Positions 29,279-34,834 of a DNA stretch of 64,000 nt are shown here, in pieces; positions within the stretch are counted from its first letter, which is position 1, and every line of letters begins with the position of its first letter. The stretch spans positions 128,001 through 192,000 of the IMG/VR virus record IMGVR_UViG_3300044620_001883; one strand, written 5' to 3'. The notes beneath the pieces are model-generated. The model did not search any database, was not told the DNA's origin, and worked only from the letters and a program-made list of their open reading frames with translations. A program made the translations under genes and the position numbers. Origin of the DNA: a virus (Duplodnaviria > Caudoviricetes).

Positions 29279-29536
29279 ATGCCTGACAAAATAACACCCT
29301 TGAGAATAATCCAACCCACACCTCCAGCTGCCGAGGTCCCGGCAGAAGTCATTGCTACCTCGATCACCCAGATCGCGAAGGCCATGAAGGACCTGACTAG
29401 TACGCGGCTCGGCCGTAATGCGATCGTGACCCTGATCCACGCTGCCAGCAAGGTTCCCAAGCGTGACATCGTGGCCGTCATGGGCAGCCTCGAGAATCTG
29501 GAGCGTGACTGGCTGAAACCCAAACCCAAGGCGTGA
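29279..29536 (+). CDS. hypothetical protein (possible DNA-binding)
   Basis: 85 aa, basic helical protein. Confidence 0.6.
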   Translation: MPDKITPLRIIQPTPPAAEVPAEVIATSITQIAKAMKDLTSTRLGRNAIVTLIHAASKVPKRDIVAVMGSLENLERDWLKPKPKA

Positions 29537-29817
29537 ACGCAGATAACACAGATCGCATCTTGCAAGACCTCAAGCAAACCATCGACAAGTTACCACCGAC
29601 CGCAATTGGCGTTGTGCTGGAAACCTGGCGCGTGCGAATTGACGATATTCGAAAACAACTAAAGTTTACAGGCAGATCACTAACAGACGTAACGTGCCCA
29701 GCTGCGCGTGAGCTGATGACGCTGGAAATGGCCGTACGTCAAATCGAGGCGGCCTGTGCTGTTGAGCGCGGGGATGGACTCGATGCCATCCGTATCCTTT
29801 TGAACCCCACCCCATGA
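29533..29817 (+). CDS. hypothetical protein
   Basis: 94 aa, GTGA overlap. Confidence 0.55.
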   Translation: MNADNTDRILQDLKQTIDKLPPTAIGVVLETWRVRIDDIRKQLKFTGRSLTDVTCPAARELMTLEMAVRQIEAACAVERGDGLDAIRILLNPTP

Positions 29818-30443
29818 GCACCACCCGTCGCGAGAAAGCCCGACGACTCAAGAACGCAGAGGGTGTGATCATCTGCAGCTGTGGCTGTGGTCAGATTCCA
29901 AAGCCACCACGTCAGACTTGGTTCAGCCAGGCCTGCGTGGATGGTTGGCGGGAGAAGAATGATCCGGGGTACATCCGCCAGCAGATGCTGAAGCGCGACA
30001 AGGGGATCTGCGCTCTGTGTGGTGTCGACTGCGTCAAGATCCAGAAGACAGTACAGCGGCTGCAACACCTGCTGCGCTGCAGCCCTCCAGATCACGGTCA
30101 GCGCAAGTTCCGGGAAGGTCACAGTTACAACGGGCAGTTTCTGCGCAGCAAGTACGACAGGTGCCTGGCAATCTGGCAACGGTGGCGGCACAAGCGTATT
30201 ACAGCTGCCAGGAACCGACTGGAGCGTATCAGGGCTCAGGGTTGGAACCTGGACCGGAAGACACAATGGGATGCGGATCACATCCTACCCGTCATCGAGG
30301 GTGGGGGTCTGTGTGGTCTTGTCTCGATGCAGACACTGTGCGTACCTTGTCATAAGGAGAAAACCAAACAGCATGCAAAAGACCGGGCGCAAAGAAGGCG
30401 AGAGAGTAGTGGGTGTTTACCAGATCAAGTGCCTGGTAACTAG
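29814..30443 (+). CDS. HNH endonuclease-family protein
   Basis: RDKGICALCG...WDADHILPVIEGGG...TLCVPCH. Confidence 0.85.
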   Translation: MSTTRREKARRLKNAEGVIICSCGCGQIPKPPRQTWFSQACVDGWREKNDPGYIRQQMLKRDKGICALCGVDCVKIQKTVQRLQHLLRCSPPDHGQRKFREGHSYNGQFLRSKYDRCLAIWQRWRHKRITAARNRLERIRAQGWNLDRKTQWDADHILPVIEGGGLCGLVSMQTLCVPCHKEKTKQHAKDRAQRRRESSGCLPDQVPGN

Positions 30444-31182
30444 CCATGTCTATGTGGGCAGCTCTGTGCACTGCCTGCGGCGGTTTAAGTATCACAAGAC
30501 GCAGCTCCGAGGCGGTACGCACACCAACAGACACCTACAAGCGGCGTGGTGTAAGTACGGCGAAGCGCAGTTTGAGTTCATGATTATTAGACAGCTCACG
30601 GCTCCTTTGGGACCTGAGGTGTTGCTAACCTGTGAACGAGCCCTCTGTGTGAAGCTTAAAGCCCTTGATCCGTGCCACGGTTACAACCAACAGCAACCCG
30701 GTGCGGTGTACTGCCGTAGCACCGCTGAAGAGACCAAGCGCAAAATAGGCGACGCCAACCGAGGTAAGAAGAGAACACCAGAACAGGTTAAGCGCGCGCG
30801 TGATGCATTTTTACTGGCTACCGCGGGCAGGCCAGGTCCGAATAAAGGACGCAAGTTTGGACCCGATGTGCGACAGAAGATACGTCAAGCCCGTCTAGGC
30901 CGTCCGTCCTACACACGCAGTGCGGCGACGCTGCAAAAGCAGTCGTTAGTTTTGAAGAGCTTTTACACAACACCCAAGGGGCAGATTCTACGCGCCGCGC
31001 GCGGGAGGCCAGCGGAGCCGTGCACCAACTGTAGCTGTATCGTTAAGACACGCCGACGCGGTTTATGCGGAGCATGTAACGAGTACAAGAGGCGCACAGG
31101 GAACGCTCGACCTCCTGGAGGTTTTCCACAGGGTGGAGGCAGGCATGGGCGAAAAACCCTGGCAAAGCCGCACGCTTTGTAA
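30373..31182 (+). mobile_element. free-standing GIY-YIG homing endonuclease with NUMOD3-like repeats
   Basis: GVYQIKCLVTSHVYVGSS..RRFKYH..L..GTHTNRHLQAAWCKYG; TKRKIGDANRGKK and NKGRKFGPDVRQKI repeats. Confidence 0.88.
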
Positions 31183-31285
31183 CCCCTGCCACAAAAAGGT
31201 CACCAAGGAACTAGCAGCCCGGCGAGCTGAACACCGCAGGCAGGAGAAAAAGCAGTTGCAAACCCTGACCGTTTCGCCATCATGA
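31145..31285 (+). pseudogene. displaced second copy of the HNH C-terminus
   Basis: Encodes (MGEKPWQS)RTLCNPCHKKVTKELAARRAEHRRQ, 14/25 identical to HNH residues encoded at 30330-30404. Confidence 0.75.
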
Positions 31286-31289
31286 CTGT

Positions 31290-31422
31290 GCCGCGTGTCG
31301 CAACCGGTTTCCCCAGAGAAGAGATTCTGAAATAGCGGATTCGTCCTGCAACATCAGATCTTACCATCAGACCCCTTCTACAGGTCTACAGGTAATCTGG
31401 GAGACCGGCCTCGACACGCGGC
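31290..31422 (+). ncRNA. putative structured non-coding RNA (~133 nt, multi-way junction)
   Basis: 11-bp perfect terminal helix GCCGCGTGTCG/CGACACGCGGC, second helix CCGGTTTCCCCAGA/TCTGGGAGACCGG, two internal hairpins; upstream TTGCAA-N16-CATCAT. Confidence 0.65.
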
Positions 31423-31439
31423 TCTTTGCGTACATGGCG

Positions 31440-31468
31440 TTGACGTCCAGCCAGTGACCTCGTAATGT
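31440..31468 (+). promoter_or_regulatory. sigma70-like promoter (leaderless)
   Basis: TTGACG-N17-TAATGT, ATG 7 nt downstream. Confidence 0.65.
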
Positions 31469-31475
31469 CCAGATC

Positions 31476-31838
31476 ATGGACACATCCAAGTACCGCCCCC
31501 TTGCCTATCTGCTGGGCTCCAAGACAACTTATTCTGCCGCCGACGCTGTAGGCAGTCCGGCGAATCGGAACATGTACCGCCACCACACCTTCCAGCGCAT
31601 TGTGAAGGATGAAGGCGGCGGCAACCCTGCCGTTAAGATCCAGGCGCGGATCATCCCCGTCGAGGACGCTGTGGATGCCGCGGAGTGGTCCACCATTGCC
31701 ACACTCAACAACTCCACACCCATTGCCTTCTTCGGTCACACGCTCTTGCCGGCTGTCCGGGCTGTACGTGATGACGGCAGCACTGTGGAAATCAAGGTCT
31801 TGGTGTTCAGTGGCAATGACCGTGACGATGAAGGCTGA
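31476..31838 (+). CDS. hypothetical beta-rich protein
   Basis: 120 aa, directly upstream of the beta' C-terminal gene. Confidence 0.6.
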   Translation: MDTSKYRPLAYLLGSKTTYSAADAVGSPANRNMYRHHTFQRIVKDEGGGNPAVKIQARIIPVEDAVDAAEWSTIATLNNSTPIAFFGHTLLPAVRAVRDDGSTVEIKVLVFSGNDRDDEG

Positions 31839-31843
31839 TCCCT

Positions 31844-34834
31844 ATGCGCGTCAAAGCCATCCAGTATGCGGTCAATTCGGTGCTACCTCCAGAGCTGCGC
31901 GACTATCAACGCCCTCTGGACGGTAAAGGGATCGAGCGTCTGATGCACCAGGTGGCGGTAAGCTACCCGGACAAATATGCGGAGGTGCTCCGTCACATCG
32001 GTGACCTGGGACGCAACGCCGCGTACTGGCAAGGTGAGACCATGGGACTCGATGATCTGCGCGACGTCATCGACACGCCCGGCTATTTGCGCCAGATGGA
32101 CACGGAGGTCGACGCAGCCACACGAGGCCTCAAGGATCCGCAGGCGATCCGGGAAGCCCGGGAGGGTGTCTGGCATAAATGGGCGTCCAAGCTGGAGCGC
32201 GACACCATGACGGCCGCGCTGGTGAAGAACAACGCGATCGGTGAATCTGTGGCATCCGGAGCACGCGGCAAGCCTGTGCAGGCCCGCGCTATGCTTTCCA
32301 CGCCGGCGATCTTCGAAGACAGCCAGGGTCGCACCATCCCGCTCTTCGCCCGCAGTTCTTACTCCCAGGGTGTGTCTCCTGGTGCCTGGCTTGCTGGGAC
32401 CTACGGCGCCCGCAAGGCAGTCGTGAGTACAAAGGTCTCGACTGCCAAAGGTGGGTTCTTGGCGAAAATGCTCACACAGGTTGCTGCTCCTCTGATCGTG
32501 ACTGAGCCAGACTGCGGAACCACCAACGGCATCGATCTTTCCAAAGACGCGCCCGACCTGCGCAACCGCTTCCTGGCCGCCCCTGCCGGTGGGCTTGACG
32601 GTGGGTCTCTTCTGGACCGCAAGGGCATCGCGCAGATCAAAAACAAGTTCAAGGGCGACACCATCCTGGTGCGATCTGCTCTGACCTGCCAGGCCCCTCG
32701 TGGTGTTTGCGCCAAGTGTATCGGGGCAGACCCGCGCGGACAGCTCCACCGTGTTGGCTACGCCGCAGGGATCACAGCCTCGAACGCGCTCGGAGAACCT
32801 GCTTGTTTGCATGGTAGCACCCTGGTGCGCATGGCAGATGGAAGTGTCAGACCGATCACCGCTATCCGAGTTGGTGACATGGTGCTAGGCGCGGATATAC
32901 AAGGGGTGCTGCGTCCAACAAGGGTCATGAATACGTTCGTGAACGGTATGCGTCACTGCTTTAGAACGGTTGTGCGTAAGGGCTTCGGTGCCAAGTCTGA
33001 TCGTATCGAGTTAATTTCCACAGCAGAACATAAAGTTCTAAGCTTCAAAGGCAAACGTCACAAGAAGGCGTATCCAACTATCGCAAGCATAGAAATGCCA
33101 GCAGAAGTAAACCCCCAACACAGCGTGTACATGGCAGCGGGTTGCCCTGATTTCGTAGGCGTTGTCGAGCCGTGGGCCATGCTGCTCGGGGCACTTACAG
33201 GTGACGGTTGTTACACCGGAGGAAAAGGCTCTGATGGCAAAGGCATCGGTTTTTCCTGCTACGATCAGCTTCTCACTGAAGACATGCAGAGAGCGCTACA
33301 TGCACACGGATTGAAGCTGAGCGGCAGCGAAGCAAGCGAGTTTCGTGTAAACATGCAAGACCAATATAGCGCGTTCGAATACATCGATGGTAAATTAGTA
33401 CGTAACAAGCTGCGTGCGGTGCTTATCAAAGAAGGTATGTGGGGGCAGTACAGTGGTGAAAAAACACCTCCAAGAAACATTCAGAGGTGGGACAACGCAT
33501 CCGTAGCAGCTTACATCGGTGGGTTGCTGGCCACAGATGGGTGGATCACCACAACCGGAAGTGTTGCTGGGTTTAGCAGCAACTCCCAGCTGCTGCTGCA
33601 GACTGTCAAGGACCTGTGTGAGCTGCGTTTTGGTATCTACGGATCGCGCATAATCCCGAAGTACAAAAGAAAGAAAGGGACCCAACAGTTTTACGCACCA
33701 ACGTTTGAGTTCACGATCTGCGGCGCAGAGAACATGCGAAAGTTGTTCGCGCATATACCTGTGCCAGGTTGCAAACAAGCAAGGCTGCAAAAGAAAGCAC
33801 AGGAACCAACTAAAACACGCATGTGCGCGGGGCGTTTCACCGTGCTTGAGCAAGTGTACTACGGGTTTGAGATGACTTACGACATTGAGGTGGACAACGA
33901 CACCCACCTCTTTGCGCTCGCCAATGGTCTGGTTGTTTCAAACACACAGGCGGCCCTGCGGGAAAAGCACACATCAGGCGCAGCGTCTAAGAAGGCCTCG
34001 TACTCGGGGTTGGATTGGCTGCAGCGGTTCGTGCAGGTGCCAGACAGTTTCCCAGATCGCGCCCCCGTGGCTGAGCAAGATGGGACCGTGACGGTCATGG
34101 AGGCCCCGCAAGGTGGTCACTATGTACACATCGGAGATCAGGAGCATTACGTACCGGCCAACCTGGAAGTAACCGTCAAGACAGGCGAGCGTGTTGAAGC
34201 CGGGCAACCTCTGTCGGAAGGGGTCGTGCGCCCTGATGACGTGGTGCGGTTGCGTGGCGTTGGGGAAGGTCGCCGATACTACAGCGACCGCCTTGGGCAG
34301 ATGTTTGCCGACTCAGGCTTCCGCGCGGACCCGCGCAACGTCGAGCTGATTGCGCGTGCGGCGGTCGATCATGTGCAGATCGACGATCCTGAGGATCTGC
34401 CAGACGGTGTGCTCCCTGACGACACAGTACAGTTCGGGGAGTTCATGCGCAATTACGAGCCCGCCGAGGGATCCCAAATACGGGATATCAAGGAGGCCGC
34501 CGGCCAGTACCTACAGCAGCCCGCCCTCCACTACACACCCGGCACCAAACTCACAGGCAGCATGGTCGAGCGTCTAGGCAAGGCTGGCATCTCGAAGATC
34601 ATGACCAACGAGAAAGCGCCGCCTTTCCACCCCGCAATGGTGCGCCTTCAAACGTCCTCGTTTTCAAATCCGGATTGGCTGGCCAGCTTGTCGACCTCTT
34701 ACCTCGGCAAACAGCTCGCCACGGGAGCGGCGCGCGGGCAGGACACCAACATCGAACACAACATCCACTTTGCACCCCGGCTTGCTGTGGGTGTAGACTT
34801 TGGCAAGAACATCGAAACCACCGGAGAATTTTGA
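31844..34834 (+). CDS. rpoC: RNA polymerase beta' C-terminal fragment with intein
   Basis: SGARG, bridge helix YGARKAVVSTKVSTAKGGFL, DCGT, VRSALTC..GVCAKC, trigger loop ALGEPA/TQAALREKH, jaw domain. Confidence 0.92.
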   Translation: MRVKAIQYAVNSVLPPELRDYQRPLDGKGIERLMHQVAVSYPDKYAEVLRHIGDLGRNAAYWQGETMGLDDLRDVIDTPGYLRQMDTEVDAATRGLKDPQAIREAREGVWHKWASKLERDTMTAALVKNNAIGESVASGARGKPVQARAMLSTPAIFEDSQGRTIPLFARSSYSQGVSPGAWLAGTYGARKAVVSTKVSTAKGGFLAKMLTQVAAPLIVTEPDCGTTNGIDLSKDAPDLRNRFLAAPAGGLDGGSLLDRKGIAQIKNKFKGDTILVRSALTCQAPRGVCAKCIGADPRGQLHRVGYAAGITASNALGEPACLHGSTLVRMADGSVRPITAIRVGDMVLGADIQGVLRPTRVMNTFVNGMRHCFRTVVRKGFGAKSDRIELISTAEHKVLSFKGKRHKKAYPTIASIEMPAEVNPQHSVYMAAGCPDFVGVVEPWAMLLGALTGDGCYTGGKGSDGKGIGFSCYDQLLTEDMQRALHAHGLKLSGSEASEFRVNMQDQYSAFEYIDGKLVRNKLRAVLIKEGMWGQYSGEKTPPRNIQRWDNASVAAYIGGLLATDGWITTTGSVAGFSSNSQLLLQTVKDLCELRFGIYGSRIIPKYKRKKGTQQFYAPTFEFTICGAENMRKLFAHIPVPGCKQARLQKKAQEPTKTRMCAGRFTVLEQVYYGFEMTYDIEVDNDTHLFALANGLVVSNTQAALREKHTSGAASKKASYSGLDWLQRFVQVPDSFPDRAPVAEQDGTVTVMEAPQGGHYVHIGDQEHYVPANLEVTVKTGERVEAGQPLSEGVVRPDDVVRLRGVGEGRRYYSDRLGQMFADSGFRADPRNVELIARAAVDHVQIDDPEDLPDGVLPDDTVQFGEFMRNYEPAEGSQIRDIKEAAGQYLQQPALHYTPGTKLTGSMVERLGKAGISKIMTNEKAPPFHPAMVRLQTSSFSNPDWLASLSTSYLGKQLATGAARGQDTNIEHNIHFAPRLAVGVDFGKNIETTGEF
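32804..33943 (+). mobile_element. intein with LAGLIDADG homing endonuclease (380 aa)
   Basis: Starts CLHGSTLV, ends TYDIEVDNDTHLFALANGLVVSN followed by Thr; LGALTGDG and GLLATDGW blocks. Confidence 0.92.

Follow-up and report, generated by a model that had tools for sequence, protein, structure and literature searches.

To spare the gene that hosts it, a homing endonuclease is generally expected to sit in an intron, in an intein or between genes. The mORF gene hybrids of fungal mitochondria, as outlined in PMC3630166, carry a foreign C-terminus and leave the native C-terminus downstream; the cases set out there are Allomyces macrogynus atp6, Glomus sp. atp6, atp9 (with a GIY-YIG enzyme), cox2 and nad3, Rhizopus atp9 and Mortierella cox2, and PMC6279837 also deals with mobile endonuclease open reading frames (ORFs) in fungal mitochondria. 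For phage T4, one-sided homing with illegitimate repair is among the events documented in PMC2988022. Here we analyse a stretch of 64,000 nucleotides (nt), hereafter the window, which covers bases 128001-192000 of the 200,255-bp virus record IMGVR_UViG_3300044620_001883 (completeness estimate 98%). The source is an uncultured lake jumbo phage of ~200 kb with a split multisubunit RNA polymerase. At one locus of this genome, a GIY-YIG homing endonuclease gene joined to a foreign HNH 3' end has very probably inserted in a resident HNH gene while keeping that gene whole. Three plus-strand ORFs are found there, the HNH gene, the GIY-YIG gene and a small ORF, each in a different frame (Table 1).

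Searches with the HNH protein yielded 147 database relatives, the closest of which (P0002, 84% identity over the aligned part) lies on the 65-kb contig L004. This contig is collinear with the window through an endolysin gene, two small ORFs, the HNH gene, a gene of 120 amino acids (aa) and the RNA polymerase beta' gene. With blastn, window positions 29813-30317 correspond to L004 6000-6504 at 84.6% nt identity and positions 31187-32500 to L004 6535-7847 at 81.4%; ~850 bp of the window occupies the place of ~10-30 bp in L004. Identity to L004 on the upstream side falls from ~0.8 to ~0.5 in comparison segments starting at position 30294 or later, and in 15-nt steps it is lost after ~30320 and regained from ~31169, where the stranded remnant begins. 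A base-by-base register sets the two junctions at L004 ~6507 and ~6517, and neither a flanking direct repeat, nor a target-site duplication, nor terminal repeats were found at them. The HNH core is identical to that of L004 at 149 of 169 residues (88%), and the neighboring genes at 82-89%.

The comparison with L004 also tells the two HNH tails apart. The downstream tail is 76% identical to the L004 tail at the aa level over 34 residues, which is no more than inheritance explains, and shares with it a run of 27 identical bases comprising the codons for R-R-Q-E-K-K-Q-L-Q. The upstream in-frame tail is 52% identical at the aa level and ~54% at the nt level. Because the L004 DNA matches the downstream copy and the upstream homology stops at ~30320, the downstream copy is read as the displaced native end and the upstream copy as the replacement that arrived with the endonuclease. 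The native 3' end has thus been displaced by ~850 bp in the downstream direction, where it lies in a different frame and is redundant. An earlier note on this DNA had proposed an invasion of this kind, and the search for uninterrupted alleles in five syntenic relatives, set beforehand as a test, returned in each a single tail and no GIY-YIG gene, with the closest, L004, matching the downstream copy. Overall, the GIY-YIG gene is absent from all syntenic relatives (L004/5/6, L007/8, L025 and L026), every one of them has one HNH tail, and none lacking the endonuclease carries both.

The two tail copies described in that note are present as it gave them, the peptides encoded at 30330-30404 and 31169-31243 being identical at 14 of 25 positions, with 37/75 identical nucleotides (49%) and different codons for 12 of the 14 shared residues. 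This likeness is not due to chance, since BLASTP between the HNH protein and the downstream frame gives an E of 2e-6 over 24 residues. The codon differences had been interpreted as recoding, a proposal that did not hold. Two identical codons were seen among the 14 shared residues where 5.2 are expected from the codon usage of the phage (P = 0.053), so that the differences need nothing beyond old divergence, about saturation between distant homologues. Purposeful recoding of the tail was therefore rejected, and the replacement is rather the tail of a foreign homologue. The missing Asn, also pointed out earlier, is indeed replaced in both copies, by Ser upstream and by Gln downstream, at the first position of the family consensus N-Y-R/Q-T-L-C. 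It is nevertheless not a special feature of this locus, as the closest relatives, P0002-P0007, have Gly, Leu or Ala there, and its loss is a property of the clade. Across the jumbo-phage clade, HNH proteins have Gly, Leu, Ala or Ser in place of the canonical Asn. A longer remnant was also considered, as a genome search aligned HNH residues 119-199 to frame 2 of 31001-31249, which would include the catalytic His. This candidate was rejected because BLASTP supports the last 24 residues only and no DNA homology to L004 is found upstream of ~31169.

The first 48 nt of the upstream tail are 75% identical to the L025 lineage versus 54% to L004, and a blastn segment against L025 (30267-30367) spans the left junction at 77%. 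L025, a more distant relative of the phage than L004, is the nearest sampled lineage to the foreign tail. Since it lies nearer to this lineage than to L004, the upstream tail is best explained as the end of a homologous HNH gene from a different phage within the same broad group, and not as recoded in place. It is a genuine tail of this family, its best non-self match being P0065, with 72% identity over 25 residues; as a candidate donor, the P0065 contig has neither the endonuclease nor any likeness at the DNA level. The GC content of the insert is 0.558 versus 0.590 in its surroundings, and that of third codon positions (GC3) is 0.58 in the endonuclease gene versus 0.69-0.71 in the neighboring genes.

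The HNH family matches the HNH domain of ZRANB3 (5MKW) with a profile E of 1.5e-19, the tail helix being covered, and 5MKW is the top fold match of the HNH model (Foldseek probability 1.00). Pfam gives a weak HNH match in the first ORF, and PHROGs assign it to HNH endonucleases. The resident protein stands alone and has two additions, a Cys cluster at the N-terminus and ~70 residues of helical insert. A tblastn search with the protein against 50,697 cultured-phage records (INPHARED) and a blastn search against the INPHARED cultured phages gave no match. The gene is syntenic in all sampled relatives of the jumbo phage, and it is a vertically inherited resident gene, not itself selfish.

The insertion falls at HNH codon ~170 and separates, within the active-site motif, the GGG loop from the Cys-x-x-Cys-His helix. 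The residues invariant in an alignment of 35 sequences include C66, C69, H156, C176, C179 and H180, in agreement with a ZRANB3-like domain that has a His as general base and two CxxC pairs plus a His, and the replaced part keeps the last three of these together with the near-invariant L175, K181, T184 and A192. A protein stopping at the junction would miss two zinc ligands and the last catalytic His, and the replacement end thus keeps the HNH gene whole. The foreign end continues the reading frame of the native core, so that a chimeric HNH protein of full length is predicted without any intron or intein, which supports the earlier suggestion that the invaded gene is restored by the inserted 3' end. 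In the AlphaFold model of the chimera, the mean predicted local distance difference test score (pLDDT) is 85.5. Residues 171-200 form the expected strand and long helix with pLDDT values of 88-95, and the last nine residues, read through into the endonuclease region, have a pLDDT of 60. The near-invariant Leu187 is replaced by His (CAT) in the foreign tail, and this CAT supplies the A and T of the endonuclease start ATG at 30373. The substitution hints that this start is real and that the two reading frames may have co-evolved, and it would fit dual-coding pressure.

The GIY-YIG protein is an I-TevI/Seg-like family member by its predicted catalytic domain. It matches PF01541 with 28.7 bits versus a cut-off of 22.6 (E 1.6e-6), the PHROG homing endonuclease families with an E of 2e-16, and the I-TevI catalytic domain 1MK0 with an E of 5e-6. 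All residues invariant among 13 homologues are kept (Y16, Y27, R37, H41/H50, E88 and N105). Homologues of the protein carry PF07460, and a CxxC-x14-CxxC motif is visible in its translation; the last 80 residues have no Pfam match. Its sporadic presence at a collinear site, in the window and in none of the syntenic relatives, is as for homing endonucleases. A 25-nt direct repeat (80% identity) is found at 30377-30401 and 30728-30752, relating the N-terminal extension QKTGRKEGE to the NUMOD3-coding stretch EETKRKIGD, and is probably due to chance or composition.

The end of the HNH ORF overlaps the start of the GIY-YIG ORF, as noted before; the overlap is 71 nt when counted from the ATG start and 35 nt from the GTG start. 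On the other side, the GIY-YIG stop codon TAA (31180-31182) falls within the stranded native tail. As the ORF continues 14 nt into this tail, the last few endonuclease codons are host-derived. The stranded tail keeps an intact frame within the 46-aa small ORF, which has a good Shine-Dalgarno sequence; the in-frame ATG at 31145 stands, as already observed, after a GGAGG, with 5 nt between them. This remnant is annotated as a gene in public records. The public gene calls list it together with the HNH gene and do not list the GIY-YIG gene (L027:4631-5331, equal to window 30444-31144), presumably due to the 71-nt overlap on the same strand. The endonuclease is therefore absent from the protein collection that was searched.

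Table 1. Features of the HNH/GIY-YIG locus, in window coordinates; the junctions of the insert are placed within ~10 nt.
Feature	Coordinates	Strand	Description
Resident HNH ORF	29814-30443	+	209 aa; extends 39 nt beyond the homologous tail
Native HNH core, residues 1-169	29814-30320	+	N-terminal Cys cluster, CxxC, Asp-His, GGG loop of the beta-beta-alpha-metal motif
Foreign replacement 3' end	30321-30443	+	In frame with the HNH core
Homologous part of the replacement end	30321-30404	+	28 codons, TLC-x-x-CH-K...RA..RRR
Read-through past the replacement tail	30405-30443	+	Other frame of the GIY-YIG N-terminal region, up to TAG
GIY-YIG gene	30373-31182	+	269 aa from ATG 30373; 257 aa from GTG 30409; I-TevI/Seg-like
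Whole inserted segment	30321-31168	+	~848 bp; foreign tail plus endonuclease gene
Stranded native HNH 3' end	31169-31285	+	38 codons plus TGA; third frame, still open
Small ORF holding the stranded tail	31133 (GTG)/31145 (ATG)-31285	+	46 aa; GGAGG at 31135-31139

The surroundings of the locus show further features. Exactly between the HNH gene and a 119-aa gene, L007 and L026 have an unrelated 92-aa ORF (L007:6606-6884 and L026:4177-4455), and since two relatives carry such an ORF there, the HNH 3' boundary is a recurrent insertion spot in this phage group. The DNA that separates the stranded tail from the 120-aa gene (31290-31422) folds strongly (190 nt, -72.8 kcal/mol, z -4.9). When three phages are aligned, the 11-bp closing stem is seen to stay paired through four double changes in L025, and a conserved promoter-like block, TTGACG-N17-TAATGT, follows the fold directly before the ATG at 31476. 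As L004, which has no endonuclease gene, carries it too, this structure is native. Farther downstream, the gene for the C-terminal half of RNA polymerase beta' (31844-34834) contains an intein of 380 aa (32804-33943) with Hint and LAGLIDADG_3 matches, inserted at the site NALGEPA/C...VVSN/T and bearing a LAGLIDADG endonuclease domain. The same intein is present in the distant relative L025 (996 aa) and absent from L004, L007 and L026 (616 aa), L004 reading NALGEPA/TQAAL at the intein-free junction. The intein, sporadic independently of the GIY-YIG gene, makes a second selfish element at a distance of ~1.5 kb.

That the record comes from a metagenome assembly is the ground for considering a chimera of two phage populations. 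The structure of the locus is not an assembly artefact, because contigs from two other samples, JGI 3300042308 and SRR27422561, match it with 100% identity along 8,630 bp that include the two junctions. As the sequences on either side of the insert come from one phage, collinear with its relatives, we give such a chimera practically no weight. The insert could also be removed at the RNA or translation level, by a group I/II intron, bypass or frameshift, with the native tail still in use. Joining 30320 to ~31160-31169 would restore an in-frame native protein, and the native tail remains an open frame. However, cmscan found no match to any Rfam family, group I and II introns included, in 29500-31900 on either strand at E up to 1 with permissive filters, and an in-frame homologous tail with all invariant residues and a stop exactly at the junction would be needless for an intron. 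The intron-free layout has, moreover, a documented precedent in the cases set out in PMC3630166. We therefore consider removal extremely improbable. A Hint domain was likewise looked for in the insert and not found. The earlier picture of one nuclease parasitising another without splicing stands in so far as no intron model matches; as to parasitism it is only descriptive, because the host HNH gene is vertically inherited and not a selfish element.

Two homologous tails in direct orientation, ~850 bp apart, would also be expected from a duplication of the HNH 3' end in place, with the endonuclease inserted between the copies and the retained copy diverging fast. It is the functional upstream copy, however, that would have had to fall to 52% aa and ~50% nt identity, against 85% nt identity retained by the core and ~80-85% by the unused copy. 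As the upstream copy is also nearer to the L025 lineage than to the phage's own relatives and no relative has two tails, this history is very unlikely. More weight is given to mosaic recombination without homing, in which the block of HNH tail and GIY-YIG gene was gained by illegitimate or short-homology recombination and the endonuclease is a passive or inactive passenger. The spot after the HNH gene is variable, as the unrelated 92-aa ORF of L007 and L026 attests, the activity of the GIY-YIG protein is predicted, and neither a donor nor a second cassette was found. Against this explanation, the insertion lies where the host gene is catalytic and conserved most strongly, as is typical of homing endonucleases, none of the GIY-YIG catalytic residues has been lost, and the endonuclease start codon is embedded in the foreign tail, so that the two have travelled together for some time. 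On balance, we judge a passive gain of the block to be unlikely.

Several observations nevertheless weigh against an insertion by homing. In a search of 5.8 billion proteins, the nearest homologues of the GIY-YIG protein are 27-41% identical, with nothing above 41%, and the three best have no HNH gene in their context. Scans of IMG/VR and the JGI metagenomes returned no closer copy of the endonuclease, and no donor or second copy of the cassette was found in the protein, IMG/VR and JGI metagenome searches. Among small called ORFs, no orphan HNH tail other than the 46-aa ORF of the window itself was recovered. Since no donor or second cassette was found, the activity, the target and the role of the endonuclease in the insertion are inferred from its family and position. 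Its NUMOD3 match, with 16.3 bits, lies below the Pfam cut-off of 20.4. The chimeric HNH protein is likewise a predicted nuclease only, the canonical Asn of H-N-H being missing from it, as from the stranded tail and from close relatives. Finally, the codon differences between the tails, at P 0.053, are not significant and do not show selection for target-site immunity.

Under the preferred reading, the insertion of a GIY-YIG gene together with a foreign HNH end, a free-standing GIY-YIG gene would have entered the resident ZRANB3-like HNH gene of the jumbo phage during a co-infection. The endonuclease may have cut an endonuclease-free HNH allele, and the template for repair of the break would have been a donor whose endonuclease gene lay directly against the end of its own HNH gene. 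On the left side, repair could have proceeded by homologous pairing in the conserved HNH core, and on the right side by illegitimate joining or by pairing in the tail region. It is plausible that the low nt identity between the tails guards the element against loss by recombination between repeats, and that a split or diverged target site confers immunity from self-cleavage, in line with the earlier proposal that the element destroys its own target site. On this reading, the endonuclease would be predicted to target the relative's uninterrupted allele and to spare both the chimeric junction and the stranded tail. More tentatively, the HNH tail and the GIY-YIG gene may form, instead of the product of a single mishap in repair, a self-contained homing cassette moving among ZRANB3-like HNH genes of related jumbo phages, with the conserved core and the displaced tail as homology arms and with divergence of the carried tail selected to block self-cleavage and repeat-mediated loss. 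We regard this extension as possible but doubtful. If true, it would be a third way, beside introns and inteins, for phage homing endonucleases to inhabit coding sequence.

The locus, for which an empty-site relative is known, presents an endonuclease in the catalytic core of a resident gene together with a portable replacement gene end. It suggests that phage genomes can acquire chimeric genes, and small ORFs left as orphans, through homing. There is also a warning here for annotation, as the public calls give the remnant and omit the endonuclease.

The closest solved relative of the host protein is the ZRANB3 HNH domain, with which it shares the succession CxxC ... DH ... GGG ... TLCxxCHK...R helix. 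It differs in standing alone, in its additional Cys cluster and helical insert, and in belonging to a clade without the canonical Asn. With I-TevI and the T4-like Seg enzymes, as presented in PMC2988022, the GIY-YIG protein shares an I-TevI-like catalytic domain, a sporadic distribution among relatives and a site in conserved coding sequence. Its NUMOD3-type repeats are likened to theirs through the sub-threshold match given above. As for those enzymes, spread would be expected through the repair of double-strand breaks, with donor sequence at the flanks being co-converted. The Seg genes covered there are intergenic and without a duplicated gene end, whereas here the endonuclease gene lies inside coding sequence and a redundant native end remains, which points to one-sided or tail-anchored repair.

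The likeness to the mORF gene hybrids is the closest and ties this apparent intronless homing in a phage to the mitochondrial cases. In those outlined in PMC3630166, as here, an intron-less endonuclease ORF lies inside the 3' part of a host gene, a foreign, diverged C-terminus restores that gene in frame, the stranded native end is nearer to the sequence of relatives than the inserted end, and the donor is not identifiable. As judged from sequence, the locus has every structural feature of such hybrids that could be tested, namely no intron or intein, an in-frame end, a stranded native end and an end of apparently foreign origin. The hosts in that account are organelles, whereas here the host is a double-stranded DNA jumbo phage and the invaded gene itself encodes a predicted nuclease. 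In some of the mitochondrial cases described, the endonuclease is fused in phase, while here it occupies another frame and overlaps the new tail. The two tails are 56% identical at the aa level here, versus 91-100% in the Glomus examples of that report, and the phage case is a prediction from sequence. In the literature covered, itself an incomplete sample, we found no publication on a phage endonuclease accompanied by a gene end that is duplicated or serves as a replacement.

The split genes of phages offer the remaining comparison. In mobE within Aeh1 nrdA, mobA within T4 gene 39/60 and seg within gene 43 of Aeromonas phage 25, as summarized in PMC2988022 and PMC3045599, a free-standing endonuclease likewise lies inside a critical region of a phage gene. 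In the examples given there, and in the 'fractured genes' with split inteins treated in PMC2677866, the host protein consists of two polypeptides that are reassembled or ligated. Two non-redundant host pieces of the Aeh1 nrdA/mobE type are not what we find at the HNH locus; the upstream ORF holds a complete HNH domain, and the downstream piece repeats residues 173-207. In contrast to the split genes, the host protein is here whole by virtue of its replacement end, and the downstream piece is redundant.

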